From Pseudobdellovibrionaceae bacterium (GTDB lineage: Bacteria > Bdellovibrionota > Bdellovibrionia > Bdellovibrionales > Bdellovibrionaceae): a DNA stretch of 64,000 nt. The stretch lies in assembly GCA_043757515.1 (NCBI GenBank), contig JAYVPD010000012.1, forward strand, positions 1,658 through 65,657, given 5' to 3'. Positions 24,993 to 52,072 of this stretch are shown in pieces; positions within the stretch are counted from its first letter, which is position 1; each line of letters starts with the position of its first letter. The position numbers and the translations under genes were made by a program. A model generated the notes under the pieces. It saw nothing but the letters and a program-made list of their open reading frames with translations, made no database searches and had not been told where the DNA came from.

Positions 24993-25421
24993 ATGTCCGA
25001 TGTGCCAAAAAAAAAGCGCTTTTTGCCGGGGCGTTATTTAATTTATCCCGAAATTCAGCTTAAATATGCGTCTATTTTTACCGGTATTGTAGTAATAACT
25101 TTAGCTTTTTTTTTCGTGGGGGAATTTTTCTATCTCAGTCGTGGCGAGAGTCTTGGTATTGAACCAAGTCTGATTGAGGGAATTAAAGATAGTCTTATTT
25201 CCTTCAACTTGCTTGTGTTTATTATCTCTACTGTTCTGACATTTTTGGTTTCAATATTGATAACTCATCGATTTTTGGGTCCAGTCATAGCGATAAAGCG
25301 GGCCCTTGAAAATTATAAATCAGACAATCAAAACTTTAAAATTAAAATAAGAAAAACAGATGAAGCTCATTTATTGGTCAAAATATTAAATGAGTTTTTT
25401 GAAGGATTAGATGAAAAATAG
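24993..25421 (+). CDS. small two-TM membrane protein with HAMP-like linker
   Basis: 142 aa with two TM helices. THRFLGPVIAIKRALENY resembles the start of a HAMP domain. Its stop overlaps the downstream start by 11 nt. Confidence 0.5.
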   Translation: MSDVPKKKRFLPGRYLIYPEIQLKYASIFTGIVVITLAFFFVGEFFYLSRGESLGIEPSLIEGIKDSLISFNLLVFIISTVLTFLVSILITHRFLGPVIAIKRALENYKSDNQNFKIKIRKTDEAHLLVKILNEFFEGLDEK

Positions 25422-28038
25422 ACAGTTAGGTTTTTCATTGTTAGAGGTTCTAATTGCTATTGGACTTATGTCTTTGGTGGCCGTGTCTACAGCTACTTTG
25501 ATTGGTGAGCAAAACAAACAAATCAAATTAATGTCGCAAAAAATAGTTTTAAACGATACTAAAAATGCGTTTCTTGCAACTATGCAGGACACGGTATCGT
25601 GCCAGAAAAACTTGGATTCATCAGTCGATGCGTCGCTAGTTTTTAATTCAACTTTGGTTGGAAATAAATCGATGGCCCTAGCGCGTATACGAATTGGCCA
25701 CTTGGTAACCTCACCGATTTTGTTGGATACTGCTTTAGAAGTAAGTCCTGGGTCTCGACTATTTGTAAATAGCATTACCTTAGATAACCTAACCGATGTC
25801 GGTGGCGGAAAATGGTCGGGTGTTTGGAAAGTTGATTTTAGGAATGATTTTTCTTCATTTCAATTTAAGGCAATGGTTTTAAATCCGCAGTTATTTGATG
25901 TTGATATTACAACTCCGACCGCAGCGAAAATTACAAATTGTAGTTCGGTAGTGGCCGGTGGATCTGGTCAATGGGCCTCGTTGAATGCGGTCGATATATA
26001 TTATTCAGGTGGTATGGTCGGAATCGGCACGACGGCGCCGACGTCTCAACTTGAAATCACAGAAAATTTTAAACTTCCTGTGACTACGGGCGTGGCTGGA
26101 CAGATATTACAAGGGTCCAATCGTATCTTTCATACATTTGGAACCAATAGTCTATTTTTGGGACCTGATTCTGGTAACTTGGCACTGACGGGGGCAAATA
26201 ACCTTGGTGTTGGATTTCAAGCAGGTCGAGCATTGACGACTGGTTCGCAAAACACATTTGTCGGTGATCGCGCTGGTATGAGCAATACGACCGGGACATG
26301 GAATACCTACTTTGGTCAGTCGGCAGGACTATTAAATACGACGGGGAGTTCAAATTCATTTTTTGGAAGGAATGTCGCTGAAAATGGTACAACGGGCGCC
26401 GGTAACACAGCGGTAGGGTATCAGGCCGCTCGAACGCTGACTGTCGGAAATAATAATACATATATTGGAAATGCGGCTGGATTCACCGACGGAACCGTAT
26501 CAACGCCTGTTAATTTAGTAAACTCGGCAGCTATCGGATTTAACGCGCAGGTAACGGTCAGCAATGCTATGGTCTTAGGTGGTACCGGTGCTTCAGCAGT
26601 CAACGTCGGAATTGGGACAACGGCGCCTACTGAGCAATTGGAAATAACTGGAAATTTTAATTTGCCAAGCTCCACTGCTACTTCTGGGATAATTAAACAA
26701 GCGAATAGTTCTTTTATTCACAATGTAGGAACTCAGAGTTTTTTTGCAGGATCTTTAGCCGGCACCCTTTCCAATACAGGCTCCTTCAATACAGGTGTTG
26801 GCTACACAGCAATGAAAAGTGTGACAACTGGGACTATTAACACGGCGATCGGGCATCGCACAGCGGAGAGTCTTACAACGGGTAGTTACAATACCGCCTT
26901 GGGAGCCGGTGCTATGGCTAAGCAGACTAGCCCAAATGATAACACGGCTGTGGGTTCAAATTCTTTGGGAAATAATATCGTCGGCGTCGGGAATGCCTAC
27001 ATTGGAGATTCTAGTGGTCGACGTACCGAAGGTAACTACAACTCAGGCATTGGCCAACAAGTCATGTACACCCTGGTCGGCGGAAGTTTCAATTCTGGAA
27101 TAGGAAACAACGCCGGAACTGCAAATGTAGGCGGCAGTAATAATACATTTCTAGGAACAAATGCGAACACGACGACTGACGGTTTTAATTTTGCGACGGC
27201 TGTGGGTGCTGGGGCACTGGTTGGCGCTTCAAATTCACTTGTGCTTGGGGCGCCGGGCACGAATGTCGGAATTGGAGTCAGCGTCCCAGTAAGAACTTTA
27301 GATGTGCAGGCAACTAATGCTAGGATAATGGCCACTTCAACAACAAATAGCAATGCAGCCGCTGTGCGGGCATTTAATGGAATTAATGAAATTACATTAG
27401 GAGTTGAATCAAGTGTGGGGGGAGCCCTGATGACCGGGACTCTCCCCTATGCAGCATTACTCTCTTCTGACTTTAGCTGGCCATTGCAATTCGCAGTGTT
27501 TGGTGGCGTAAAAATGACAATTCTCACTGATGGTAGTGTTGGGATTGGAACAGCGGCACCTACGCAAAAACTAGAGGTAAATGGTACCATCAAAACTGTT
27601 GATTTAATTTATTCATCGGATCGTCGCGCCAAACACAATATCATGTCTTTGTCTCCGGAAGAAAGTCTGGAAAAAATCTGTGCGATTAGGCCAGTTGCCT
27701 TTGATTGGAATTATTCTGATCGTCACGATCAGGGTGTGATTGCACAAGAACTTCAATCTGTATTTCCTGACTTTGTTGTGCGAGGCTCAGATGGCAATTA
27801 TTCAGTGAAATACAATTCTCTGCTGGCTCCTTTGATTTCGGCAGTTCAATTTTTGAATACGCGACTATCTCGCATAGAAACCAGTACTAAAATTCTTGAA
27901 GAAAAAATAGCACGGCTTGAAATTGAAAATAAAATGCTTTTATTAAAACAGTATGATCTTGAAGCTAGGCAATCTAAACTAGAAGTAAAAATTGAAAAAT
28001 TATTGACTGAAAATAAACCTAAACAGGCTGCTAGGTGA
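25411..28038 (+). CDS. chimeric fibre: type IV prepilin leader + pilin-like head + tail-fibre-like repeats + peptidase S74 intramolecular chaperone domain + coiled coil
   Basis: 875 aa. MKNRQLG/FSLLEVLIAIGLMSLVAV has Gly-1, Phe+1 and Glu+5. Cys64...Cys177 form a possible pair. Four G(I/V)GT.AP...LE(I/V).G motifs. YSSDRRAKHNI...GVIAQELQSVFPDFV...YSVKYNSLLAPLISAVQ matches the S74 domain. The C-terminus shows a heptad pattern. GAAGGA RBS. Confidence 0.8.
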   Translation: MKNRQLGFSLLEVLIAIGLMSLVAVSTATLIGEQNKQIKLMSQKIVLNDTKNAFLATMQDTVSCQKNLDSSVDASLVFNSTLVGNKSMALARIRIGHLVTSPILLDTALEVSPGSRLFVNSITLDNLTDVGGGKWSGVWKVDFRNDFSSFQFKAMVLNPQLFDVDITTPTAAKITNCSSVVAGGSGQWASLNAVDIYYSGGMVGIGTTAPTSQLEITENFKLPVTTGVAGQILQGSNRIFHTFGTNSLFLGPDSGNLALTGANNLGVGFQAGRALTTGSQNTFVGDRAGMSNTTGTWNTYFGQSAGLLNTTGSSNSFFGRNVAENGTTGAGNTAVGYQAARTLTVGNNNTYIGNAAGFTDGTVSTPVNLVNSAAIGFNAQVTVSNAMVLGGTGASAVNVGIGTTAPTEQLEITGNFNLPSSTATSGIIKQANSSFIHNVGTQSFFAGSLAGTLSNTGSFNTGVGYTAMKSVTTGTINTAIGHRTAESLTTGSYNTALGAGAMAKQTSPNDNTAVGSNSLGNNIVGVGNAYIGDSSGRRTEGNYNSGIGQQVMYTLVGGSFNSGIGNNAGTANVGGSNNTFLGTNANTTTDGFNFATAVGAGALVGASNSLVLGAPGTNVGIGVSVPVRTLDVQATNARIMATSTTNSNAAAVRAFNGINEITLGVESSVGGALMTGTLPYAALLSSDFSWPLQFAVFGGVKMTILTDGSVGIGTAAPTQKLEVNGTIKTVDLIYSSDRRAKHNIMSLSPEESLEKICAIRPVAFDWNYSDRHDQGVIAQELQSVFPDFVVRGSDGNYSVKYNSLLAPLISAVQFLNTRLSRIETSTKILEEKIARLEIENKMLLLKQYDLEARQSKLEVKIEKLLTENKPKQAAR

Positions 28039-30420: not shown

Positions 30421-30810
30421 ATGACTAAAAAACTGAAAGACGAAAAACTTTTAACTGAAACTGAACTTGAATTAATTAGTATCCTTTGGAAATTAGGTGA
30501 AGGCAGCGTTGCCGACGTCCTTGCTATGCTTTCAGAAGATCGGGACCTTGCTTACACATCTGTTTCGACAATTTTAAGAATTCTTGAACAAAAAAAAATT
30601 CTGAAAGCTCGTAAAGAAGGCCGTGGTCATGTGTATATTCCTGTTCTTAGCAAAAAAGATTATGAAGAACGCACGGTTAGGCATGTAGTAGAAAATGTAT
30701 TTGATGGAACGCCAATGGCCTTGGCAAAACAACTCCTTATAACCAATCAGCTTACTAAAGACGATCTCGCCGAATTAAAAAAAATGATCGAAAAAGCGGA
30801 GAAACTCTAA
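30421..30810 (+). CDS. BlaI/MecI/CopY family transcriptional repressor
   Basis: The ATG at 30421 follows a GAGG. Winged-helix LTETELELISILWKLGEGSVADVLAML...YTSVSTILRILEQKKIL...GRGHVYIP. Confidence 0.85.
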   Translation: MTKKLKDEKLLTETELELISILWKLGEGSVADVLAMLSEDRDLAYTSVSTILRILEQKKILKARKEGRGHVYIPVLSKKDYEERTVRHVVENVFDGTPMALAKQLLITNQLTKDDLAELKKMIEKAEKL

Positions 30811-32438
30811 TGGGTTCTAGTTTGCTAAACATTTTTGTTAATGTTCATATTCTAGTGATTCTAGCTATGACTTTAAGTTTTTTTCTGAGGCTCTGTTGTC
30901 AAAGAAAAATTTTGAATGTGTCTGCAAAAAATGAAATGACTCTTAACAATATCCTTATTTTAGGTATCTTTGTTTTACCATTGATTGCCTATTCTGGGTC
31001 TGAAAGGTTTAGTTTTCAAACTGTGACAAAAACAGTGGCAGCCTTGTCCTACAAAGAGTTTGATGCCCATCTTACAGTTCCGTTAAAAGAAAACCTTATT
31101 CTTGGCAGTGATCCGATGTCACCGGTGATACCGATGGACTATCTAAAAAATGGGATCCTATTTATTTTATTCTTAACGATTCTTATTTCAATTTTTCAAA
31201 TACTATCCGAACTAAAAATTTTTTATCGAATTGCAAAAAAATCCATTGTCGTTCGTTCAATTGGTAGCACCCGAATTGCCTTTTCAGATCAGATTCAAAT
31301 ACCCTTTTCATTTTTGTTTTTTAGAACTGCCTGGGTTATTCTGCCGACTCGGTTTTTAGGCAATAAAAGTAAAATGAGAATGTCAATTCTGCATGAGTTG
31401 CAACATCATAGACAGGCGGATACTCGTTGGATATATCTCTGGCAATTGATGAAAGCGGCAGTGGGAGTCAATCCCGCCTTGAAGATTTGGCAGGGTTTGG
31501 TTTCTGAAGTTCAAGAATTAAAAGTTGATGAAAATTTGGTCGACCAAAGAAAGGTCACTGCAGTGAATTACGCTCGCTGTTTGATCGAGGTAGCTGAAAC
31601 CGTTGTGACGGAGGAAAAACGATTTGTTTGCGCAACAAGTTTAGTTTTCTTTCCCGATCGACAACAATTAAAACGGAGGATTGAATCCATGTTAAATAGA
31701 AAAATGGGCAGCAAGGTCGCTGCATTTGTAATAGCCGGTGTGTTTGTATCATCGATGACAACATTTGCACTAGGTACCAGAAAATTGATAGGAACACGAT
31801 CGGTAACATTGGCAGAGGCTGAAGTGATGGCGGCTGTGGCTAGGAAAGACAGTCAGTTTCCAATCGTTGTGAACGAGCTAGTTTTAGTTCAGTTGAATCG
31901 ATTTCTAGGAACAAAACAAGGCCGAGATTTTATGAAAGGGTCAATAAAGCGAATGGATCAGTACCGATCCATTATCGAAACAAAAATTAAAATGTTTCCC
32001 CATAAAATGCCTTTAGAACTATTGGCAGTTCCCTTGATTGAATCGGGCTATGTGAACATGCCATCATTAAAAAACAAATACAAGGCCGCGGGACTTTGGC
32101 AATTTATTCCGGAAACAGCGCTTGTTTATGGATTGCGAGTGGATGTAAAAGCGTCTAGGCCAGATGTAAGTTCTGTCGAGGACGAACGCCTTGATGTTGC
32201 GCTTTCAACCGATGCGGCACTTAATTATATTTGGTCCAATCAGCTTAGGTTTCATGATTGGCTCCTAGCGATGGCTGCCTACAACATGGGGGAAAATAAC
32301 CTAAAGACTGCAATTGATAAAATGGGCACGGACGATGTGTGGCAATTAGTGCGAGCCGGCTATGAAGGTGACAAAGCCTACCTTGCTAAGCTTGAAGCCG
32401 CTATTTTGATTTTAAAAAATCCGGATTCCTTGAACTAG
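30810..32438 (+). CDS. BlaR1-like M56 metallopeptidase fused to a C-terminal lytic transglycosylase (SLT/GH23) domain
   Basis: 542 aa. N-terminal TM helices. Zinc motif SILHELQHHRQAD. After a further TM helix: PLIESGYVNM, AAGLWQFIPETA and AAYNMGENN, typical of SLT. 1-nt overlap with the repressor stop (TAATG). Confidence 0.8.
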   Translation: MGSSLLNIFVNVHILVILAMTLSFFLRLCCQRKILNVSAKNEMTLNNILILGIFVLPLIAYSGSERFSFQTVTKTVAALSYKEFDAHLTVPLKENLILGSDPMSPVIPMDYLKNGILFILFLTILISIFQILSELKIFYRIAKKSIVVRSIGSTRIAFSDQIQIPFSFLFFRTAWVILPTRFLGNKSKMRMSILHELQHHRQADTRWIYLWQLMKAAVGVNPALKIWQGLVSEVQELKVDENLVDQRKVTAVNYARCLIEVAETVVTEEKRFVCATSLVFFPDRQQLKRRIESMLNRKMGSKVAAFVIAGVFVSSMTTFALGTRKLIGTRSVTLAEAEVMAAVARKDSQFPIVVNELVLVQLNRFLGTKQGRDFMKGSIKRMDQYRSIIETKIKMFPHKMPLELLAVPLIESGYVNMPSLKNKYKAAGLWQFIPETALVYGLRVDVKASRPDVSSVEDERLDVALSTDAALNYIWSNQLRFHDWLLAMAAYNMGENNLKTAIDKMGTDDVWQLVRAGYEGDKAYLAKLEAAILILKNPDSLN

Positions 32439-36928: not shown

Positions 36929-39118
36929 ATGTTTGGGTTTTTAATGATATTACCTGCAATGAAATCAAAATGGAAAACACGGCAGAACGGAATTGTTAGG
37001 CTATGTGCCATTATCCTTGTTGCCGCTCTTTTTGGCTCAAATAAATCGTCTGCAGCACAATTAAATTCCAAAACAGATGGTTTGGTTTCCTTGGTATCAC
37101 AATCATACTTTCTTAAGCAGTGTTTATTGCTGGAACAAATTCAAGATCCCGGCCAGAAGGTCGCTGCTTTTGATTCTGTTGTCCAGCGGCTTATAGAGTT
37201 TGATACTAAACATCGAAGCCAGATGAGTCTGACAAATCCAGTTGCAAAATCCCTGGCAAAATGGACCCAAGCCGAATTCATAGACTATGTTGCAGAACAA
37301 CTTGAATCTAAGTATTGGAGTTTAGCTGATGAAGCCAAGTTTCAGGATCTTCTTTCTAGCCGTCCTGATTTTTTTGAAATTCCATTACAGGAAATAGACA
37401 ACAATCCAGCCGCTAAAGCGTACTATAAAAGTCTTGTTGATAGTTTTAATGCCTATGACTTCGGAATTCCGGGTGCTTCGGTGGGTTTCCTTAGGCCGGT
37501 TATTAGAGGCGGAGCCAGTGCTTTATTTGGACTACTTAAACAGCCGGGTGCTGTGAAACTACAAATAATCGCCAATATTGAAAATGCTTTGGGCAGTAGG
37601 AAAAAAAGTTTACTTTTGATTCCAAAACAAATTATTAAATTGGGCCATTTAAACTTTGGAAATCCAACAGACCAGCGATTTTTCGAACTTTTAATTGGAA
37701 ACTATTTTTCCGACATTTCAGATGAATCTGCTCAAAACATTCTAAAAAAGTTGATCGAGCGACCAGACAAAAATTCACCAATGGATATTTTCAGGCTCCT
37801 AGTGCATCACTCAGATCCAATTTTTCAAAAGCTTTTACAGTTTGTTGCTCGACGGCCTGGTTTTTCGCCAGACTTGCAGGCGGTCTTTATTGAGCTAGAA
37901 AACTCGGGGATGGTTGAACCATAGGAAAAAGTGGGTGACCGGCTGAAGGCCGCGCCAGTAGGGTATCGTTGGAAGAATCCATGGAATGCAAGCAATCAGA
38001 AACCACTCGCAGGGACGATGGCTCAGACCTATTTTGCGAGTGCCATCCATAAGCACACCAAAGAAAAAGTCGATCTGGTGGCTCGCGTATTAAAAGACCC
38101 GGTAGCTCTAGCGAAACGAATTGAAACCGCCTATGCAAAACTGAAATCGCTCGCAAGGCACATGGATCAAGACCCGGTATTGCGAGCCAATCATTTTCCG
38201 CTGATCGACCCTTTAGTTGACGATGCCCGAGACTTTACAACTCGTGAACTAGATCTGGAACTAACAAAAGCAAATCAACAGCAAGGTGAAACCTATTATC
38301 CCGAGCGTGTGGAAATATCCAAAAAGTTGTCCATTGAATTTGTATCGCCAAAATCATTGGATTCGAAAGTTTCTTCCGTGCTCTATTCCACCCGAATGCC
38401 AGGGGTTAAATTTGATGAATTTTCGCGACTCTTTCCGGAGCTAGCGGGCGTCGTTGCCGAGGCGACTGTAAAAAAGTGGATCGAAGTGGCTTTTTTCAAA
38501 GGTTTATTTTTCCATGGCGATTTGCATCTAGGAAATATGAATGTGGAGGTCATTCAAGGACGAACAACGACCGTTCGTGTTGGCCTTTTTGACTATGGAA
38601 TTTCTGGCCATCTCGATGAGTCCCATTCTTCGATAATGGCTCGTCTTGAATTGGCTGCAAAAAATAAGCGGTCGGCAGTCTTGATGGCAAAGTATATTTG
38701 GATGCTATCTGATCCCGATAGTCAAACAATGAATCTGGATACACTGACCCGTAAAATGCGCGAACATAAAAAGGAAAAGAGAAGTCCAATAAGTGCCGCG
38801 GGATGGCTGTCCTGGGCCCTTTCCGAAGGACTTAAATTGGAAAAAAACATCAATGTGCTCGTTCGCGGGTTAGGAACCATGGAAATTCTTCTCAGTTCGG
38901 GCGGCTCAAATAAAAGTATAGGCGATTTGTATCTCGACGTGGCCATGGAAAATATAGCAGTCTCTTCAGACTATGTGATGAAGGCAAGCGACGATCAAAT
39001 CGGGGCTGGAGAAGGGCCAATCGATGAAGAGTTAAAACTGAGGAGCGAACTTTTTAAAGGTCGCTCTGGTATTAATTCGTGCCCGGGTTTTTATAAAACC
39101 AGCAAAGTTAAAAATTAG
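36929..39118 (+). pseudogene. ABC1/UbiB-family atypical kinase-like gene interrupted by one in-frame TAG (37922-37924)
   Basis: ORFs 36929..37924 and 37931..39118 are in the same frame. The ABC1 domain spans the stop: ...DPIFQKLLQFVARRPGFSPDLQAVFIELENSGMVEP*EKVGDRL...KPLAGTMAQTYFAS...FHGDLHLGNMNV...VGLFDYGISG. Confidence 0.55.
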
Positions 39119-41384
39119 TGACGAAACCCAGTGTTCCAGTAGATTGAGATTCCACCCCTACACCGTCTTTTTGAAATGTTTCTCGGTTACTTTTATCCTG
39201 GCGGCCTTCAAGTCTTAAAATTAAATTGGCATTGATTCGATTTTCAATCGTCAAAGTAAAACTCGTAAGTTTTTGTCCGTCAGTAAATGATTCTCCAAAA
39301 ATTAGATTGTCTTTGTCATCAGCGACTTCATATCTTGGCGAGACAGCCCATTTTTTACTAAATTGATATTTGGAATACACTGCAGTTCCGGTTGCGCTAT
39401 ATATTCCATGTACATAGCTATCAAAATTGATTGCAAACGAAAGCTTGTCATTCACTTTGTAAGAAGCAATAAAGTCATACAGGTTGCGATTTTGAACTGT
39501 ATTTCCTGCGTCTAGATTTGTAGGAAGGGTACTTGTACCACCCATTGTGTTTAAATAAAAAGAAAGTGAATCTGTAGGATTCCAATTGATTTGGGTTCCA
39601 TAGGATTTTTGACGAGAGTTAACGTACGAATTATTCCAACCATCTGCAACCAATGCCATAACTGAAAGTTTATCATTTATAGAATAGGTAGCCTTTACGC
39701 CTTGATGCCAAGCGGGTTGAAAATACCCACAAAGTAAACCGCGTGAATAATTCCAGTCATCTTGAGTTTCGGCTACTTCAAAACCAATATGAGTATAGAA
39801 TCGGCCCACTTCTATTTTTAAGCTTTCTAAGAGTTTATAACCAACATAAGCCTGATTCATATTTATTTGCGCCGCATCCGTCTTTGTGCCTGACAAAACT
39901 TGCATCGCTGGACCATATCCAAAGTCTAAAGTAGTCGATAGTTGTGAAATTGTTTTTTGAATTTGTAAATGCGCGTAACTGATTTGTAAATCGTCGTGGT
40001 ACAAATCGAAAACACGGTATTTATTTTGCGATTTTGAATCAGCAGCTGTCGGTGTTGCTGTATTAACGGCTGGATTGTTGCTATTGTATAAATAGTAACC
40101 ATCAACAGAGCCTTTTAATGTCACTCCAGAAAATAGTTCTACTAATTTATTTAGGTCTTCGTCTTTAGGTTTTTGATCAGCGTCTGTTAGGGCAATATAA
40201 TATGAAATATCTTTGTCGATTTGACTAGTTAAATGAATTCTAAAATGATTGATAATTTGAATAGTCCCAGCCGCATCTAGGTCTTGGCTAAACGGACTAT
40301 CTATGCCTCGCAATAGAGTGATCTCGACTGGTTCCCGAGTTGCCAAATTGAAAGCCAGGACACCGGACGCCATCAGTATCAGACTACCATAGGCGTAAGT
40401 TTTTAGTCTCCAAAATTGAAATGAAGAGTTATCTAAACTACTGTAACTAATCAGTCCCCTGGGTTTCTTAACTTTTTTCATTATCTCATCACAGGCATCG
40501 ACACAGGCTGTGCATGAAATACATTCCATTTGAAGGCCGTTTCGAATATCAATTCCAGTTGGACACACTTCTACACATCGATTGCAGCCGACACAGTCCC
40601 CGGTGTTTCGGCCTAGGTTTTTAAAATCTCGCCTGGGTTCGCCCCGTTTTTGGTCGTAGACAATAGCTAAAGAGGAAGGCTCCATCAGTACGCTTTGTAT
40701 GCGGCCATAGGGACACATGATGATGCAGAACTGTTCGCGAAACCAAGCAAAATTAAAAAGCAGGACAGCGGTGAATGCCATCACAAGTAAAAAATAATTC
40801 CAGTTATCAGTGGGCGAACCGTTTATCATCTTAAGGAGCTCTATAGATCCTGTAAAATAAGCGACGAAACTATGAGCGAATAGAGTTGAAACCAAGAAAA
40901 ATAATATCCATTTAAATGTTTTTTTCCTAAATTTTAAAAAGGACCAAGATTCTAAATTGAGTTTCCGCCTTTCAATATATTTTCCTTCGGTCCAAATTTC
41001 AATTTTACGATAAACAGCATCTATAAAAACAGTTTGAGGGCAGGCCCAACCGCACCATATTCGACCCCAAATCGATGTTACCAAAGCTAGGCCTAAAGTC
41101 AAAATCGCTAGTAATAGAAAAATAAGTGGCGCATCATGAGACTTAAAAATCAGTCCAAAAAAAATAAACTCACGGCTTTGAATATTTAGCAGGACCAGTT
41201 GATGCCCTTGAAAGTGAATCCAAGGAAGACCTAAAAAAACAAGCAGCAAACCAATTTGAACCCGAGTTCGATGCTTTCTAAAATAACCCTGAACCTCGGC
41301 GGGAATAATATTTATTCTAGCGCCGTGTTCGTCAATACTGGTTAGTTTGAATTGGTCTTTGCGTTTGTCATTGTTCTGTTGCAT
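39108..41384 (-). CDS. ccoG: CcoG/FixG-type 4Fe-4S ferredoxin membrane protein fused to a C-terminal porin-like beta-barrel domain
   Basis: 758 aa. aa 1-400: CGWACPQ, CPYGRIQS, CVGCNRCVEVCP, CISCTACVDAC and TM helices, as in CcoG. aa ~418-758: SGVTLKGSVDGYYLYNSNNP..., alternating beta-strand pattern, terminal ...LGFVTNF, as in OmpL/BBP2-type porins. Confidence 0.7.
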   Translation of the reverse strand: MQQNNDKRKDQFKLTSIDEHGARINIIPAEVQGYFRKHRTRVQIGLLLVFLGLPWIHFQGHQLVLLNIQSREFIFFGLIFKSHDAPLIFLLLAILTLGLALVTSIWGRIWCGWACPQTVFIDAVYRKIEIWTEGKYIERRKLNLESWSFLKFRKKTFKWILFFLVSTLFAHSFVAYFTGSIELLKMINGSPTDNWNYFLLVMAFTAVLLFNFAWFREQFCIIMCPYGRIQSVLMEPSSLAIVYDQKRGEPRRDFKNLGRNTGDCVGCNRCVEVCPTGIDIRNGLQMECISCTACVDACDEIMKKVKKPRGLISYSSLDNSSFQFWRLKTYAYGSLILMASGVLAFNLATREPVEITLLRGIDSPFSQDLDAAGTIQIINHFRIHLTSQIDKDISYYIALTDADQKPKDEDLNKLVELFSGVTLKGSVDGYYLYNSNNPAVNTATPTAADSKSQNKYRVFDLYHDDLQISYAHLQIQKTISQLSTTLDFGYGPAMQVLSGTKTDAAQINMNQAYVGYKLLESLKIEVGRFYTHIGFEVAETQDDWNYSRGLLCGYFQPAWHQGVKATYSINDKLSVMALVADGWNNSYVNSRQKSYGTQINWNPTDSLSFYLNTMGGTSTLPTNLDAGNTVQNRNLYDFIASYKVNDKLSFAINFDSYVHGIYSATGTAVYSKYQFSKKWAVSPRYEVADDKDNLIFGESFTDGQKLTSFTLTIENRINANLILRLEGRQDKSNRETFQKDGVGVESQSTGTLGFVTNF

Positions 41385-41959: not shown

Positions 41960-42122
41960 GGGATTCTCCGGCTTCAAATGGTAAGGTTTCAATTCTTTTA
42001 TAGAGAATTCTATTTCGGCTGATGGAGGTCCACCAAAGTACGCCAACAAAAAAGAGGAAAAAAATAATAAGTCCAATTGAAGTTAAATAAGTGTCGTTAA
42101 AGTAGGATAGTCCGTCTTTCAT
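41952..42122 (-). CDS. ccoQ: cbb3 oxidase small subunit CcoQ-like
   Basis: 56 aa from the ATG at 42122 (TAATG overlap with the ccoNO stop): MKDGLSYFNDTYLTSIGLIIFFLFFVGVLWW... Single TM. The position between ccoO and ccoP supports the call. Confidence 0.55.
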   Translation of the reverse strand: MKDGLSYFNDTYLTSIGLIIFFLFFVGVLWWTSISRNRILYKRIETLPFEAGESHD

Positions 42123-44224
42123 TATTTTTTTCCTTTTTGTCCTAGACATTGAATATAGGCAATTAAAGCTACGATTTCCTTTTTTTCCATTCCAGCAGGC
42201 ACGCCGTTAGCTTCTAGGTCTTTGGCAATTTCAAGCGCTTGTTTTTGAGCAACAATATCCGCATTTGCAACGGTGTCGTCATCATATGGGACGCCTAAAT
42301 ACCGCATCACAGATAGTTCTTTTCGCAGAGGCAAAAAATCCATCGAGTGTTCGATCAGCCAAGGATAGTTGGGCATAATACTTTTTTGCGTCATGCTTCG
42401 GGGGTCTATCATGTGATTGTAGTGCCACAGATTATTATATTTTTTTCCAACACGAGCTAAATCAGGCCCTGTTCTTTTGGATCCCCATTGAAAGGGTCGA
42501 TCATACATGGATTCTTCAATCGTTGACGCTTTTCCATAGCGTAAAACATCAGCAGGTATTTGTCGAATCTGCTGAGAATGGCAAAGGTAGCAGCCTTCAC
42601 GAATATAAAGTCCACGCCCCGCTAATTCCAAAGGGGTGTAAGGTTCAGTCGCATCGTTCGGACTGATATAGCGATTAAGAGACAAGGTTGGGTAGATTTC
42701 AATTATCGAACCAACTGCGATGGCTAAAAAAGCAAGAACTGAAAATGTAAAACCAAGGCCTTCTAGCTTTCTATGTGGGTCTTCATTTTTTTCATCAAAG
42801 CCAGTTCTTGATACTTCCACGCCGCTGTCTTGCACCGTTTTAGGCGCCAGTTGAATTGTTTTATAGACGTTGTAAATCATCAGCATAAAACCGACGATAA
42901 AAAGAAATCCGCCTCCTGCCCGAACCCAGTAAAGGGGAACAATTTTAGAAACAGTTTCTACAAAATCGGGGTACGACAGTTTGCCGTTTGGCTCGACCGC
43001 CAGCCACATCAGACCCTGAGTAATGCCCGCTGTGAGCATCGACGTGTAATAGAGCACAACGCCGGTTAGCGCGATCCAAAAATGCTGCTGCATTAGTTTT
43101 TCACTGTACATCTTAGTGTTCCAGAGTTTTGGAATCAGGTAGTAAAACATACCAAAAATAAGCATACCATTCCAGCCAAGAGCACCGCCATGAACGTGCC
43201 CAATGATCCAATCTGTGTAGTGGCCAAGGGCGCTTACACTTTTTATGGACAACAAGGGGCCTTCGAAAGTCGCCATTCCATAAAATGTTAAGGCGGCAAT
43301 AAAAAATCGAATAATTGGATCGGACCGCAGCCTTTGCCAAGCCCCTTTGATTGTCAAAAGGCCATTGATCATGCCGCCCCAACTGGGGGCCCAAAGCATA
43401 ACTGAAAAAACCATTCCCAGAGTTTGCGCCCAATCAGGTAAAGACGTGTAAAGCAAATGATGAGGACCCGCCCAAATATAAATAAATACCAACGCCCAAA
43501 AATGAATGATGGAAAGGCGATAGGAATAAACTGGCCTACTAGCAGCTTTTGGAACAAAATAGTACATCAAACCAAGGAAGGGAGTCGTTAAAAAGAAAGC
43601 AACGGCATTGTGTCCATACCACCACTGAACTAGCGCATCCTGAATTCCTGAATAAACAGGAAAACTTTTAAACGCAGCGACTGGGATTTCGATGGAATTA
43701 ACAATATGCAAAACGGCGACTGTTATGATTGTGGCGATATAAAACCAAATCGCCACATACATGTGTTTTTCGCGTCGATTTTTAATCGCACCAAAAAAAT
43801 TGACAGCAAAAACAACCCAAATCAGTGTGATAGCGATGTCAATAGGCCATTCCAGTTCGGCGTATTCTTTTGATTGAGTGTAACCCAGGGGTAAGGTAAT
43901 AGCGGCAGAGACTATAATAAGTTGCCAGCCCCAAAAATGGATTTTTGAAAGAGTATCTGAAAGCATTCGGGTTTTAAGCAACCGTTGTGTTGAATAATAA
44001 ATCCCGGCAAAAATAGCATTTCCTGCAAATGCAAAGATAGCGGCGTTGGTATGCAAGGGTCGCAAGCGACCGAAAGTAATCCATTCTAAATTAAAATTCA
44101 TAGGCCAGTAGGCCAGTTGCAAAGCGATGACTAATCCAAATAGAAAGGCAGCGCCTCCCCAAATTAGTGTGGCTAGCACAAACTTTTTAACGATCTCGTC
44201 GTCATATTTTATAAATTCTTTCAT
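42122..44224 (-). CDS. ccoNO: fused cbb3-type cytochrome c oxidase subunits I and II
   Basis: 700 aa. About 12 TM helices of haem-copper oxidase type (HVHGGALGWNG, HFWALVFIYIWAGPHH), followed by a CcoO part with LYIREGCYLCHSQQIR. Confidence 0.9.
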   Translation of the reverse strand: MKEFIKYDDEIVKKFVLATLIWGGAAFLFGLVIALQLAYWPMNFNLEWITFGRLRPLHTNAAIFAFAGNAIFAGIYYSTQRLLKTRMLSDTLSKIHFWGWQLIIVSAAITLPLGYTQSKEYAELEWPIDIAITLIWVVFAVNFFGAIKNRREKHMYVAIWFYIATIITVAVLHIVNSIEIPVAAFKSFPVYSGIQDALVQWWYGHNAVAFFLTTPFLGLMYYFVPKAASRPVYSYRLSIIHFWALVFIYIWAGPHHLLYTSLPDWAQTLGMVFSVMLWAPSWGGMINGLLTIKGAWQRLRSDPIIRFFIAALTFYGMATFEGPLLSIKSVSALGHYTDWIIGHVHGGALGWNGMLIFGMFYYLIPKLWNTKMYSEKLMQQHFWIALTGVVLYYTSMLTAGITQGLMWLAVEPNGKLSYPDFVETVSKIVPLYWVRAGGGFLFIVGFMLMIYNVYKTIQLAPKTVQDSGVEVSRTGFDEKNEDPHRKLEGLGFTFSVLAFLAIAVGSIIEIYPTLSLNRYISPNDATEPYTPLELAGRGLYIREGCYLCHSQQIRQIPADVLRYGKASTIEESMYDRPFQWGSKRTGPDLARVGKKYNNLWHYNHMIDPRSMTQKSIMPNYPWLIEHSMDFLPLRKELSVMRYLGVPYDDDTVANADIVAQKQALEIAKDLEANGVPAGMEKKEIVALIAYIQCLGQKGKK

Positions 44225-46912: not shown

Positions 46913-49900
46913 GTGGGACTAAACACAAAATTAATTTATTTTGTTAAATCTATTCTGTTTTTAGGATTTAGCATTTTGTTTTTAAACGCCTGTGGATTAA
47001 ATACTCCGGCAGTCAGCGATCTATCTTCAAGTTCGAAAAATACCGGAGCCCCCGACACGTCTAATCTTTTACAAATTAAGGTCACAGATAGCAATGGCAG
47101 TCTTTTCAAAGACCCGTCAGTTCCACTAACTGTAGGTACGAAGCTTACTTTGAAAGCCGCATTGTTTAATCTCAGTGGTGATTTTGTAAAAGAAGAAAGT
47201 GTTTTCTGGTCTATAAAAACTCTTTCTGGTGGATTAAATTCGGGTCTCAGTTGCATAGCCATACCGTCGACGACCTGCGATTTTACTCCACTTCAAGCCG
47301 GTGTGGTCATTTTAGAAGCGTCTTACATTGGCACTGATAAAACAGTCATTGGACTGAACGCTTCGTCGCCTCCCATTATGGTGACGTCACTTAGTGTCCC
47401 GTCCACAATGACCATTCAAAGCGGTGACAATCAACTGGTTGTGGCGAATTCAGATAGTACGAGTCCATTAGCTGTTATTGCTAAGGATAGTTTTGGTCAA
47501 CCGGTCACAGGAGTCACAGTGAGTTTCACAGTGACTGCGGGCGGCGGCTCCGTAAACTCAGCAACGGCCATTACAGACACAAATGGAATTGCCCGGTCTA
47601 TTTTTCATAGCTCTACTTTAGCGGGCAGCCTAAATAATACAATTGTAGCACAAGTCGTTGCTAATCCAGCGTTGATCCAAACACTGCATGCCTCAACGAT
47701 CGCTGGTGGGGCAGACCATTTATCTTATCTAGTGCAGCCAGCGGGAAGTTATTCTTTAGTGGCGCTTAATTCTCAGCCCGTTGTTCAGCTTCGCGATCTC
47801 TATGATAACGTAGTCTCTAGTAATGCCAATGTTGTATTGACCAGACAAGCAGGTACAGGAGCGTTGGGCGGAACCACAACACTTCCGATGATTAACGGCA
47901 CCGCTTCGTTTTCTAATGTGACTTATTCAGTTGCAGAAACAGGAATTGTGCTTCGAGCAACCAGCGGTGCGCTGGGTGTAAACTCGGTTCCATTTATTGT
48001 GGCGACCTCGGGCGGCGCTGTAGATCGCGATCCCGATGATGTCATTTTTAAATTTTCCGTTTCTTATGTTGGCGGTGCGCCGGGCCGAACTTCTTCAAAT
48101 AGTGTTACCATCGCAGGAATTGCCGTTCCAATCGATATCACTCTCAGCGGAGCTGGCAATCCAAAACTCATTCTAAATGGTGGTGCTGAAGTGGCCTCAT
48201 TAACCGGAGTCGGTGTCGGAGCGCAGATCGCTGTGGCGGTGGATGCACCAACGATTTTAGGAAATAAAAATACGGTTACAGTTTATATGGGCACTCGAAT
48301 TGAAACCTGGGAACTTGGCTATGCGGACTCTACAAAAATAGCACCCGTATTTGTTACAAGTACAAATTATGCTGGAAATTTTGGCGGCGTTAGTAGCGCC
48401 GATACAGCCTGCCAAACCGTTGCGACGAATGCTGGCCTCGGTGGAAATTGGATGGCCATGGTTGCGACCGCTACTTCGGCATCAGTTCGCACTCGCATTC
48501 CTTGGAATTATGGTCAGGTTCGCAGGCTGGACGGTGTGATTGTCGCAAATGATTTCAACGATCTTTGGGATGGCGTTTGGGCTTTTCCGATAAATGTAAC
48601 TGAAAATCAAGCTGTTAAAAATTCAGACGTGTGGTGGGGAAATACCATTTTCGGTGAAGGATATGTTGGCGCCCCAAGCGCAGACTGCGGTACCTGGACG
48701 TCCAATTCAGGCGGTGCTACAAGTACAGTGATGGCTTCGGCCTCGACGACATTAGCTGTTAATAATTCAAAAGCCTGTTCAAGCACGTTAGCCTTTTTTT
48801 GTATGGGCGATACGTCTGGTGCCGCGGACACGGATCCAACTGATGTTGATTTCTTGGCAGACGTTTCGTACGTTGCAAGCGCAAGAAAAGTTTCAAATAT
48901 AATTACTATTACAGGCATCACAGCCAGCATTCCTGTTTCTATTGCTGGAAGCAGCGGGACTCCGCAGATCAAAATAAATGGTGGCGCAGAAGTGTCCTCG
49001 GGAACAGCCTCGCTGGGTGATACGATTCAATTAGTGATGGATGCGCCAAGTAGTTTGGGTACAAAAAATACAGCTACCGTTACGATGGGCAGCGACGTGC
49101 GCACGTGGTGGGTTGGGTACGCTGACAACACAAAAACGGCGCGGGTATTTGTTTCTGATTATAAATATCCAGGGGGATCTTTTGGTGGCTCATCAGGAAT
49201 GGACAGTCGTTGTCAAACGATGGCCGGCAATGCTGGCTATGCGGGAACGTGGAAAGCATTAATCGGTGATAGTAGCAATGGCGGTGGACCGCGTAACCGA
49301 ATGAACTATAATTGGGGAAATTTACTTCGAATTGACGGCGCGGTTGTCGCAACTTCTTGGTCAGATTTGTGGGATGGGTCGATTGCGAATTCAATTTCTG
49401 TAGATGAATTTGCAAACACACAAAATGGATCTGCCTGGACAGGTTCAACAAGTCAGGGTGCCTTGGATGTCAACGGCATAGGAACCTGTTCAAATTGGTC
49501 CGTAAGATCAGCGTTTGCACGAGGGGGCTCGACGGCCTCGACTTCTTCAACTTGGATAAATAATGCATCGTTAGATTGTAACGATGGTGGCGGCTATTAT
49601 TTTTATTGTGTCGAAGATGTACCAGCAGTCGATACTCTTCCTACGGCTTTAAATTTCCCAGTAGAAGTTTCCTACGTAAGCGGAGTCGGTGGTCGCACAG
49701 GATCGGTAACACAAACTATTCGTGGAATAAGCCAAGCGGTTTCTGTCTCGATTTCGGCAACCGGCGGAAATGCTACTTTTAAAATAAATGGCGGCGCGGA
49801 AGTGACATCGGGCACAGTGCAATGGGGTGATACTGTAAAAATATTTATGGATTCTCCTACAGTTTTTGGAACCAAGTATACGGCCACTTTAACTGTGGGC

Positions 49901-52072
49901 AGTGGTGTCTACACTTGGTCTTTGGGTTATGCAGATTCATCTATTACAGCTCGAATTTTTGTTGCCGACACAGCGTTAGCTCCGAGTAGCTTGGGTGGAC
50001 TTTCAGGTGCTGATTCCAAATGCCAAGCGATGGCGACGACTGCAAGCTATTCTGGAACTTGGAAAGCATTACTTGCAACTACTACTTTTGGCGGCCCAAG
50101 AAATCGTATGAATTTTAATTGGGGTACTCTTAAGCGAATCGACGGGGCTGTCGTAGCTACATCATGGTCGGATTTGTGGGATGGAACTATTGCTAATAGT
50201 ATTAATCGTGATGAAAATGGAAATTTAATTAGTACGGGCTGGGTAATTACTGGTTCCGATGCTTTAGGAAATTTAGATTCCACTTCGGGAATCACAACGT
50301 GCAATGATTGGTCTACAAACAATTCATCTGTTGTGTATCGTATGGGATCCGTGGGGTCGACATCTGGAACCTGGCTGTTCAATGCGATGTCTTATTGCGA
50401 TGCCAGTATTTACGCCTACTACTATTGCTATGAGGACACAGTGGTTGCCGATACAGATCCAGGAAATTTATATTTTCCAATGGAAGTTTCCAACACGGCC
50501 GGTGTTCCAGGACGCAAAACGTCGTCGACTGTTTCTATAAAAGGAATTAACCAAGCGGTTTCAGTTACAGTCAGCGGTGCTAGCGGTAATCCGGCGATAA
50601 AAATAAATGGCGGGGCCGAAGTGGCTTCTGGCACAGTGAATTGGGGCGACACTGTTCAAGTTGTCATGGATGCGCCAAGTGTTTTTGGTACTAAATATAC
50701 GGCTACTATCAATATTGGCAGCGGGTCCTACACTTGGAATCTGGCCTATGCGGACAGCACCATTACTGCTAAAGTTTTTGTCACCTCGGGATTATACACT
50801 GGAAATTTAAATGGAAGCGGCGGACCAAATGGGATTTGCCAAACAACTGCGACTGCAGCAGGGTATTCGGGAACGTGGAAAGCTATTTTTTCAACATCCT
50901 CGTCGAAAATTCGTGAAACAGCGCCTTTCAATTGGGGTACTTTGGCCCGAGTCGATGGAGTCGCTGCTGCGACTAATTGGTCTGATCTTTGGGATGGAAG
51001 CCTTACTAACCCAATTACCAAAGACGAAAATGGTGCGAGTACAACGGGTTATGCATGGACCGGCAGTGCCAGCAATGGTTCGGCGACAGCGCTCAATTGT
51101 AACGATTGGGGATCGTCGAGCTCAGCAATACTGGGTCGTTATGGCCAGATAACAAGCAATTCTAATTGGATTTCGTTTTCGGATTATGATTGCGTCAATT
51201 ACGCATCCCACTTGTATTGCATTGAAGACACAGTTTCAAATGATCTCACTCCGTATAACTTTTTTGTCCCTTATAAGCTTTATCAAAATACCAGCACACG
51301 AATTTCATCCGTAGCTGTGCCCGTAACAGGAATCACGGCAGCGGCAGCGGTTACGATTTCAGGAGCAAGCGGTAATCCAGCCTTTAAAATTAACGGAGGC
51401 GCCGAGGTGACATCAGGAAATGTGAACAATGGGGATACAATTACACTAGTTATGGATAGCCCAGGCACATTTAATCAAAGTAATAAAATGACCGTGCAAA
51501 TTGGGAATGGTGCGGCCACTCCATGGCGTGTATGGACCGGCGATGGCTCAAGCGGAATACAGAAGCGTATTTTCGTAACGTCGACAACCTATTTGGGAAA
51601 TATTGGCGGAATCGCCGCCGTCGATGCTCTTTGCCAAGCCCGCGGAAATTCTAATGCCGGCTTAGCTGGAAAAACCTGGAAAGCATTGGTTTCTGGTCCA
51701 AGCACCTCCGAAGTCGATTGGGCCATAAATCACATTGGCTACAACTGGGCCGAGTTATGGACGATAAATCCTGACGGTTCATTGCGAAATAAAGTTTTAA
51801 ATGGATCACAAATTTGGAATACGCCAATCAGTTTGGTAAATACTGTCAATTACACAGAAGCAGGCGCTGTTGCTACAGCTACAACAATGGCCTGGACAGG
51901 CACTAATCAATATGGATTTGGAAATAGCACAAGTGCGTGTAATACCTGGACATTCGGATCCTATCAACAGACATCGACTCGAGGCAATCGAGCTAGTCCC
52001 GGCGACAATTGGGTCAACGATAGTGCCGCTGGTTGTGATAATCCCAGCATTTTATACTGTATAGAACAATAG
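46913..52072 (+). CDS. giant surface lipoprotein: Ig-like (Big) domains + five tandem [Ig-like + endostatin/DUF1554-like 4-Cys] modules
   Basis: 1719 aa with a GTG start. Signal plus FLNAC. aa ~150-370 are invasin/Big_1-like (TIQSGDNQ...VTFTVTAGGG). Five ~265-275-aa repeats follow, each ending ...YC(V/I/Y)E(D/Q). Confidence 0.85.
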   Translation: MGLNTKLIYFVKSILFLGFSILFLNACGLNTPAVSDLSSSSKNTGAPDTSNLLQIKVTDSNGSLFKDPSVPLTVGTKLTLKAALFNLSGDFVKEESVFWSIKTLSGGLNSGLSCIAIPSTTCDFTPLQAGVVILEASYIGTDKTVIGLNASSPPIMVTSLSVPSTMTIQSGDNQLVVANSDSTSPLAVIAKDSFGQPVTGVTVSFTVTAGGGSVNSATAITDTNGIARSIFHSSTLAGSLNNTIVAQVVANPALIQTLHASTIAGGADHLSYLVQPAGSYSLVALNSQPVVQLRDLYDNVVSSNANVVLTRQAGTGALGGTTTLPMINGTASFSNVTYSVAETGIVLRATSGALGVNSVPFIVATSGGAVDRDPDDVIFKFSVSYVGGAPGRTSSNSVTIAGIAVPIDITLSGAGNPKLILNGGAEVASLTGVGVGAQIAVAVDAPTILGNKNTVTVYMGTRIETWELGYADSTKIAPVFVTSTNYAGNFGGVSSADTACQTVATNAGLGGNWMAMVATATSASVRTRIPWNYGQVRRLDGVIVANDFNDLWDGVWAFPINVTENQAVKNSDVWWGNTIFGEGYVGAPSADCGTWTSNSGGATSTVMASASTTLAVNNSKACSSTLAFFCMGDTSGAADTDPTDVDFLADVSYVASARKVSNIITITGITASIPVSIAGSSGTPQIKINGGAEVSSGTASLGDTIQLVMDAPSSLGTKNTATVTMGSDVRTWWVGYADNTKTARVFVSDYKYPGGSFGGSSGMDSRCQTMAGNAGYAGTWKALIGDSSNGGGPRNRMNYNWGNLLRIDGAVVATSWSDLWDGSIANSISVDEFANTQNGSAWTGSTSQGALDVNGIGTCSNWSVRSAFARGGSTASTSSTWINNASLDCNDGGGYYFYCVEDVPAVDTLPTALNFPVEVSYVSGVGGRTGSVTQTIRGISQAVSVSISATGGNATFKINGGAEVTSGTVQWGDTVKIFMDSPTVFGTKYTATLTVGSGVYTWSLGYADSSITARIFVADTALAPSSLGGLSGADSKCQAMATTASYSGTWKALLATTTFGGPRNRMNFNWGTLKRIDGAVVATSWSDLWDGTIANSINRDENGNLISTGWVITGSDALGNLDSTSGITTCNDWSTNNSSVVYRMGSVGSTSGTWLFNAMSYCDASIYAYYYCYEDTVVADTDPGNLYFPMEVSNTAGVPGRKTSSTVSIKGINQAVSVTVSGASGNPAIKINGGAEVASGTVNWGDTVQVVMDAPSVFGTKYTATINIGSGSYTWNLAYADSTITAKVFVTSGLYTGNLNGSGGPNGICQTTATAAGYSGTWKAIFSTSSSKIRETAPFNWGTLARVDGVAAATNWSDLWDGSLTNPITKDENGASTTGYAWTGSASNGSATALNCNDWGSSSSAILGRYGQITSNSNWISFSDYDCVNYASHLYCIEDTVSNDLTPYNFFVPYKLYQNTSTRISSVAVPVTGITAAAAVTISGASGNPAFKINGGAEVTSGNVNNGDTITLVMDSPGTFNQSNKMTVQIGNGAATPWRVWTGDGSSGIQKRIFVTSTTYLGNIGGIAAVDALCQARGNSNAGLAGKTWKALVSGPSTSEVDWAINHIGYNWAELWTINPDGSLRNKVLNGSQIWNTPISLVNTVNYTEAGAVATATTMAWTGTNQYGFGNSTSACNTWTFGSYQQTSTRGNRASPGDNWVNDSAAGCDNPSILYCIEQ
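48023..52069 (+). repeat. five tandem coding repeats of 792-828 bp inside the giant gene
   Basis: The module starts are read from the sequence: 48023 (DRDPDD), 48827 (DTDPTD), 49631 (DTLPTA), 50450 (DTDPGN) and 51242 (DLTPYN). Shared motifs: KINGGAEV.SG, (Y/W).GYAD, (I/V)FV(T/A)S, GTWKA, WSDLWDG. Confidence 0.85.

Follow-up and report, generated by a model that had tools for sequence, protein, structure and literature searches.

Among the closest described counterparts of the protein analysed here are the LenA-F lipoproteins of Leptospira, which Stevenson et al. named 'leptospiral endostatin-like' in 2007 and for which an endostatin fold was predicted by threading (PMC2063517). The Len-motif ends in CVEQ and is duplicated in LenC-F, and Len proteins bind laminin, fibronectin and factor H (PMC2063517). 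The Pfam family DUF1554 (PF07588), the Len family and the endostatin structure PDB 1koe were explicitly tied together in 2008 (PMC2387172). A full-text literature search on DUF1554 returned work on Leptospira and an unrelated fungal paper, with nothing on other bacteria, and a search for Bdellovibrio with endostatin found nothing relevant. Here we analyse a gene at 46913..52072 (+) of a 64-kb window (the whole stretch of DNA under study, 64,000 nt of contig JAYVPD010000012.1 in assembly GCA_043757515.1, from a Pseudobdellovibrionaceae bacterium), which encodes a putative lipoprotein of 1719 aa with five tandem modules, each pairing an immunoglobulin (Ig)-like half with a DUF1554/endostatin-type half. 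This five-fold architecture is undescribed in the literature and comes from an unexpected lineage. The protein itself is a well-formed new member of the known, very abundant DUF1554/Len family, and is therefore a good example rather than a discovery. A first-pass annotation of the window, made from the sequence alone, had named the Leptospira-type DUF1554 family; the family match holds, but the host belongs to the Bdellovibrionota and the link between endostatin and DUF1554 had already been published.

Like the Len proteins, the window protein joins a lipoprotein signal, recognised by pattern only (LNAC here, LSGC in relatives), to a ~160-aa, four-cysteine, endostatin-like domain that ends in C(V/I)EQ and has been duplicated within the gene, as in LenC-F. 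Whereas Len proteins possess one or two motifs and have neither an interleaved Ig-like domain nor a Big_1 stalk, the window protein possesses five Ig+DUF1554 units. Reports of Len proteins come from pathogenic Leptospira only, whereas the host here belongs to the Bdellovibrionota, and the gene does not qualify as a lenA paralogue. With animal endostatin the modules share the fold, detection by profile at 3e-8, the four cysteines and a W-x-x-L-(F/W)-x-G motif. Endostatin, however, is basic, with Zn-binding histidines and Arg24/Arg27, and the modules are acidic and lack those residues. Endostatin also sits at the end of a collagen chain that has Gly-X-Y repeats, a trimerisation domain and a hinge; the window protein has none of these, contains no run of at least four G-X-Y triplets and has no collagen match in Pfam.

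Invasin, intimin and FdeC are built of Big_1 arrays that end in a superdomain composed of an Ig domain and a C-type-lectin-like domain, to which the module can be likened by analogy. They share with the window protein a Big_1/Invasin_D3 stalk domain and a design in which Ig-like domains carry a compact lectin-like head. Invasin and intimin have an inverse-autotransporter β-barrel/LysM region, for which the window protein gave no Pfam match, having a lipobox anchor instead, and they have a single Ig+head unit, as against five units with an endostatin-type head in the window protein. Neither was among the top 50 Foldseek matches of our module 4 model. Metagenomic DUF1554 array proteins have the same domains in the same tandem layout, and differ from the window protein in that the latter has one extra internal module (module 3).

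Five modules pair an Ig-like half with a DUF1554/endostatin-type half

Translation confirmed the open reading frame (ORF) and, exactly and in frame, the five modules of 264-276 aa that had been delimited in the first-pass annotation (Table 1). The modules follow one another head to tail, are 268, 268, 273, 264 and 276 aa long from module 1 to module 5, contain exactly four cysteines each, and consist of a ~105-aa N-half and a ~160-aa C-half. Both motif strings quoted for them recur in the translation: the N-half has KINGGAEV, the C-half (R/K)(I/V)FV, WSDLWDG and YC(I/V)E(D/Q).

Profile searches identify the C-half. Scanned whole, the protein matches DUF1554 over five stretches (E=4.4e-18, 65.9 bits against a cut-off of 27.5) and Endostatin (PF06482) with 31.4 bits against a cut-off of 29.4, two families that Pfam presumably places in one C-type-lectin clan. 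Similarity of individual modules to the Pfam DUF1554 model is modest, 21-35 bits each: in single scans the cut-off is passed by modules 4 and 5 and narrowly missed by modules 1 and 3 (21.1 and 22.9 bits), and module 2 gives no match. The five C-halves align along their full length with one another. The four cysteines are kept in 21 of the 21 modules of five proteins, the window protein and its four close relatives (below), and the modules of the window protein finish in FCMGD, YCVED, YCYED, YCIED and YCIEQ, the cysteine and C-terminal ending of DUF1554.

A profile built from 17 C-halves of these five proteins matched 1koe (3.1e-8), 1dy0 (3.4e-8), 1bnl (1.6e-7) and 1dy2 (2.5e-6) in the PDB, which are mouse or human collagen XVIII and collagen XV endostatins, over nearly the whole domain; no bacterial structure was matched. 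All four cysteines and the W-x-x-L-(F/W)-x-G motif coincide in the alignment, so that the likeness to endostatin with cysteines in the same order, originally seen by eye, is borne out. The profile was needed, since a phmmer search of the PDB with the full-length protein gave only marginal endostatin matches (E about 0.27). The AlphaFold2 (AF2) model of module 4, made from a 19-module alignment, had a predicted local distance difference test score (pLDDT) of 93.8 and a predicted TM-score (pTM) of 0.88. When this model was compared with the PDB by Foldseek, the top four matches were human and mouse endostatins (1bnl, 1dy1, 1koe and 1dy0), with E of 2e-8 to 1.5e-7, target TM of 0.72-0.77 and root-mean-square deviation of 2.8-2.9 Å, at only ~18-19 % sequence identity. 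Profile and model together support the identification of the C-half as a DUF1554/endostatin domain with the endostatin fold, in which two disulfides presumably stabilise the domain as they do endostatin itself, and the pTM of 0.88 over both domains suggests a fixed interface between the Ig-like and endostatin-like halves. The module provides a clean, high-confidence modelled example of DUF1554 with this fold; no bacterial DUF1554 member was found among the solved structures searched. Neither outcome that the first-pass annotation had named as refuting it, an unrelated fold or the lack of any DUF1554/endostatin HMM match, was observed.

The N-half is modelled as an all-β, Ig-like sandwich, in line with the β-sandwich that had been anticipated. 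Its Foldseek matches, obtained with module 4, are weak and include MSP, the PapD-like domain of HYDIN and domains of the S-layer protein SbsC. No Pfam family covers the repeat, whether each N-half is scanned or proteins with 7-26 N-half copies, and hhalign detected no relation between the N-half and the three stalk domains. N-halves also occur without C-halves: this large repeat family builds arrays of roughly 26-29 copies, in proteins 3,400-4,400 aa long (e.g. P0216, P0237, P0249). A tblastn search of phage genomes gave one weak N-half match, in Synechococcus phage Sf-CH1b (41 %, E=7e-4), to a protein annotated as 'IPT/TIG domain-containing'. In BFVD, the module 4 model found partial Foldseek matches (E 2e-8 to 5e-5; 126-166 columns, the output not showing which module half is matched) to giant structural proteins of the cyanophages S-SCSM1, S-CBWM1, ACG-2014e and S-CAM1, annotated as 'Phage tail collar domain-containing', 'Outer capsid protein' and 'BNR repeat domain protein'. 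The N-half match in Sf-CH1b probably accounts for them. A scan of IMG/VR with a single module found nothing.

The array is old and its family abundant

Protein identity between modules is 31-53 %, the most distant pair being modules 1 and 5 (BLASTP E=3e-22), and DNA identity is 47-58 %. DNA repeat finders detected only remnants of 60-73 % at conserved motifs, ~800 nt apart. The module copies are therefore old and diverged, as the first-pass annotation had held, and recent tandem DNA duplication is rejected on these figures. Elsewhere in the window, a local family HMM found no further copy of either half.

A word-indexed search yielded only four close relatives (P0002-P0005), 39-49 % identical to the window protein and with four modules in each. 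These nearest relatives are metagenomic proteins with the same stalk and module order, and not Leptospira proteins; a scan of genome contigs gave only a weak relative from the Planctomycetota. A tree of the 21 modules revealed positional orthology across P0002-P0004, in which first modules pair with first and second with second, module 4 of the window protein pairs with the relatives' third and module 5 with their fourth; in P0005 the correspondence is clear for the last module only. Module 3 of the window protein is an extra, old internal copy. It follows from the positional orthology that the array is older than the species split and that each position has retained its own identity, which supports the maintained function that had been argued from the divergence of the modules. 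Module 5 represents the most widely conserved module type, matched by the terminal modules of many other proteins.

Within the module, sequences vary most in the C-half, at residues ~190-250, which separate the WTG motif from the last cysteine; the KINGGAEV loop and the NWGxLxRxDG segment vary least. This pattern fits a conserved scaffold bearing a diversified contact surface. It bears on an alternative in which the protein would be a structural component of the envelope, either periplasm-facing or coat-forming, its repeats acting as spacers or lattice elements without a specific ligand. The composition of the protein, rich in Ser, Gly, Thr, Ala and Asn with few charged residues, is consistent with such a role, as are the weak SbsC matches of the N-half and the Gly at +2 after the lipid cysteine, which fits outer-membrane sorting and is uninformative on which face the protein occupies. 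Diversified binding heads, however, are a better fit to the positional orthology, the module-specific signatures and the hypervariable C-half segment, and all characterised members of the domain family are binders, so that a purely structural role seems unlikely to us.

How common is this kind of protein? An exhaustive profile search of 1.84 billion representative proteins gave 21,944 matches at E<=1e-3, 13,212 at <=1e-10 and 1,157 at <=1e-30, counts that take in both module halves. Domains were re-counted in about 200 of the proteins retrieved. Among these, eleven proteins have four copies of the composite Ig+DUF1554 unit, including P0002-P0005, P0217-P0220, P0232 and P0240, and the window protein alone has five. 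Pure DUF1554 arrays reach 12 copies (P0238, with both DUF1554 and Endostatin matches in Pfam), P0222 combines 11 copies with fn3, and giant proteins that also have fn3, Big_3 and Lcl_C domains contain arrays of these same domains. Many apparent single-module matches are fragments of multi-module proteins, in which the last module is of the module 5 type and ends in YCIEQ. The description of the domain as 'eukaryotic-matrix-like' was thus an overstatement: with ~13,000 representative proteins at E<=1e-10, the DUF1554/endostatin domain is overwhelmingly bacterial and often arrayed, a bacterial building block in the main rather than chiefly an animal matrix domain.

Signal, tether and stalk

The ORF begins with GTG, 4 nt downstream of AAGG, and has no alternative in-frame ATG; its product is an acidic protein of ~174 kDa. 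The N-terminus, MGLNTKLIYFVKSILFLGFSILFLNAC, has a basic n-region followed by a hydrophobic core and a lipobox-like LNAC. The lipoprotein signal proposed earlier (FLNAC) is upheld as a pattern, with Cys27 as the candidate lipidated residue; a canonical LLSGC lipobox at the equivalent place in P0003 and P0005 supports lipoprotein status. Beyond a low-complexity tether, three domains make up the stalk (Table 1). The first, which contains a Cys114/Cys122 pair invariant in the five relatives, is the sole part of the stalk to be modelled confidently; from a five-sequence alignment, AF2 of the stalk as a whole was poor (pLDDT 53.8). The second scores as Big_1 (7.4e-12, 45.6 bits, cut-off 34.9) and Invasin_D3 (2.7e-9, 37.9 bits, cut-off 33), and most of the distant homologues owe their match to this region. 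The third is probably Ig-like. Pfam gave no match for the first or the third domain, so that of the several invasin-like Big domains announced for this region one scores as such and two β-rich regions are without a family. The three domains are mutually unrelated by hhalign. Foldseek matches of the stalk model are generic antibody/Ig pairs, FdeC among them, and should not be over-read. The NCBIfam scan of the whole protein returned no family, and promoter and terminator scans gave counts at chance level. An enzymatic role was considered and rejected, as the Pfam and NCBIfam scans matched no catalytic family.

Table 1. Domain organisation of the 1719-aa protein, with window coordinates and the evidence for each feature
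Feature	Coordinates	Strand	Evidence
Signal peptide and lipobox, aa 1-27 (...FSILFLNAC)	46913..46993	+	Translation; Cys27 is the predicted lipidated residue, by pattern only
Ser/Thr-rich low-complexity tether, aa 28-47	46994..47053	+	Sequence; aligns poorly among relatives; AF2 pLDDT <40
N-terminal β domain 1, aa ~48-160	47054..47392	+	AF2 all β, pLDDT 66-90, mostly 79-90
Big_1/Invasin_D3 Ig-like domain, aa 172-248	47426..47656	+	Pfam
Third stalk domain, aa ~262-366	47696..48010	+	Strongly conserved in five relatives; AF2 confidence low
Module 1 N-half, Ig-like β sandwich	48023..48343	+	Fold inferred from module 4 model
Module 1 C-half, DUF1554/endostatin-like, 4 Cys	48344..48826	+	Endostatin 2.4e-4 (full length), DUF1554 2.9e-4, local family HMM 4.4e-54
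Module 2 N-half, Ig-like β sandwich	48827..49141	+	Module comparison, local family HMM
Module 2 C-half, endostatin-like, 4 Cys	49142..49630	+	Alone, weak Endostatin match (0.0093); aligns full length with other C-halves
Module 3 N-half, Ig-like β sandwich	49631..49951	+	Belongs to the extra module, missing from four-module relatives
Module 3 C-half, DUF1554/endostatin-like, 4 Cys	49952..50449	+	DUF1554 8.3e-5; phmmer alignment to 1koe
Module 4 N-half, Ig-like β sandwich	50450..50770	+	AF2 residues 1-104 all β, pLDDT 91-98
Module 4 C-half, DUF1554/endostatin-like, 4 Cys	50771..51241	+	DUF1554 31.3 bits, Endostatin 7.3e-4 (full length), Foldseek endostatin
Module 5 N-half, Ig-like β sandwich	51242..51565	+	Module comparison, local family HMM
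Module 5 C-half, DUF1554/endostatin-like, ends ...LYCIEQ-stop	51566..52069	+	DUF1554 35.0 bits, Endostatin 2e-4

Surface chemistry and ligand

The Zn site of endostatin is formed by three histidines and one aspartate near the N-terminus, and heparin is bound by a basic arginine patch. Neither is found in the modules. The C-halves are acidic in 21 of 21 cases (pI 4.1-5.2, net charge -2 to -7), Arg24 and Arg27 of endostatin align with Gly/Ser in the C-half profile, and the five modules contain two histidines in total, so that a three-histidine Zn site is absent. Taken together, these features make heparin or matrix binding by the modules unlikely, to judge from their residues, and the suggestion of matrix or heparin binding made for the array in the first-pass annotation finds no support. 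Such a surface, acidic, Zn-less and Arg-poor, speaks for a role of the bacterial domains different from heparin binding.

The same features weigh on the possibility that the protein acts as endostatin or Len does and binds heparin or host matrix, its heads being directed at laminin, fibronectin, heparan sulfate or the complement regulators of an animal. That endostatin is the closest solved structure speaks for it, as does the domain family and lipoprotein anchor in common with LenA-F, whose ligands include laminin, fibronectin and factor H. Against it stand not only the chemistry of the C-halves but also the host, which KdpB places in the Bdellovibrionaceae/Pseudobdellovibrionaceae, and the relatives, which are from metagenomes and not from an animal pathogen; we regard such a function as very unlikely. 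Our best guess at the ligand is a neutral glycan, or else a protein carried by other cells or by particles, and not a polyanion. The likely contact surface is the stretch from the WTG motif to the last cysteine, where the sequences vary most.

A candidate envelope-anchored adhesin

What might five such heads on one lipid anchor be for? The reading that we favour, and consider reasonably probable, is that the protein is an envelope-anchored, multivalent adhesin of a Bdellovibrionota bacterium. Lipidated Cys27 would anchor the protein in the envelope, and the Ser/Thr-rich tether followed by the stalk of three β domains would carry the five modules, in which the Ig-like halves could set the spacing and orientation of the five endostatin-like heads. 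Ligand preference probably differs from head to head, as each has kept its own sequence identity since before the species split. The Big_1/Invasin_D3 stalk is an adhesin-like architecture and counts for this reading, as do the arrays of the same domains in giant fn3, Big_3 and Lcl_C proteins, and there is precedent for adhesion by this domain in the Leptospira Len lipoproteins, which with their one or two motifs bind laminin, fibronectin and factor H (PMC2063517). Published work on prey recognition in Bdellovibrio describes diverse adhesive tips, with a C-type-lectin fold (Bd2740) and S74-terminated fibres as examples.

Several observations weigh against an adhesin. Three of the five C-halves lie under the Pfam cut-offs when scanned singly, the canonical lectin Ca/sugar motifs EPN, QPD and WND (and also EPS and EPD) are absent from the protein, and the binding data for DUF1554 come from Leptospira proteins alone. 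Lipidation of Cys27 and surface exposure, like the disulfides and the interface between Ig-like half and head, are features that we infer, and many diderm lipoproteins face the periplasm. Nor is any neighbouring gene conserved: the contexts of P0002, P0004 and P0005 all differ, which leaves the gene without an operon partner.

A more specific form of the adhesin reading is prey recognition, in which each module would serve for a different prey-envelope glycan and the array would complement the MAT fibres. The protein comes from the Bdellovibrionota, where Bdellovibrio uses the varied tips just mentioned, Bd2740 and the S74-terminated fibres among them; the window also encodes an S74-terminated protein of 875 aa, and the named distant relatives include Myxococcales and Nannocystis. 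The DUF1554 family is, however, also common in non-predatory Leptospira, Microcystis, an Alphaproteobacteria bacterium and Planctomycetota, and a predatory lifestyle is only presumed for the host metagenome-assembled genome (MAG), so that this form of the reading is a doubtful one. Broadened to a prey- or particle-recognition organ, with five heads of individual specificity on one lipid-anchored stalk, it is still a long shot; if true, the array would stand beside the MAT fibre adhesins as a counterpart without a fibre, and the very large DUF1554 family outside Leptospira would gain its first function. With heads conserved at five positions, and in a lineage known to recognise prey by diverse adhesive folds, the protein is a reasonable candidate for binding assays. 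The value of the finding lies in annotation and in a starting point for the function of a large DUF family and of an Ig-like repeat that has no Pfam family; it overturns nothing known.

The S74-terminated protein is encoded at 25411-28038 (+). Pfam finds in it only Peptidase_S74, an intramolecular chaperone domain at the C-terminus (aa 736-789), and it fits the published S74-terminated MAT fibre adhesins of Bdellovibrio (Bd3182 type).

Host and genomic context

KdpB of the window is 86-92 % identical to proteins of Bdellovibrionaceae, Pseudobdellovibrionaceae and Bdellovibrio MAGs, which identifies the host as Bdellovibrionota and not Leptospira. GC content at third codon positions is 0.378 in the gene, in line with its neighbours, so that the gene is native, and recent horizontal acquisition is rejected on the same ground. 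The gene is flanked by a cbb3 oxidase cluster with a CcoI-type ATPase and by kdpED/kdpFAB. In two relatives a 179-aa ORF with no Pfam match adjoins the gene (L003, 6242-6781; P0005 locus, 69-608); in L003 its product begins with a lipobox-like LGC sequence, and a counterpart is missing in the window and in L005.

Four other genes of the window are noted. The gene at 39108-41384 (-), which adjoins the cbb3 oxidase genes, encodes 758 aa in which Fer4_18 and Fer4_5 are fused to a C-terminal OmpL-like porin, BBP2 (aa 420-757, E=4.8e-73); the 4Fe-4S part appears CcoG/FixG-like by eye, and an iron-sulfur membrane protein together with an outer-membrane barrel is an unusual pairing. CcoN and CcoO (COX1 and FixO) are fused in one 700-aa ORF at 42122-44224 (-), surrounded by genes for FixS, a P-type ATPase, FixQ and a FixP-like protein. 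An 824-aa RCC1-repeat protein (WD40_RLD, 2.8e-80) is encoded at 4120-6594 (-), and several distant Big_1 relatives of the five-module protein (P0006, P0007 and P0009) join Big_1 to RCC1 repeats. Finally, in the 542-aa product of 30810-32438 (+) a BlaR1-type M56 peptidase domain is accompanied by an SLT lytic transglycosylase domain at the C-terminus.

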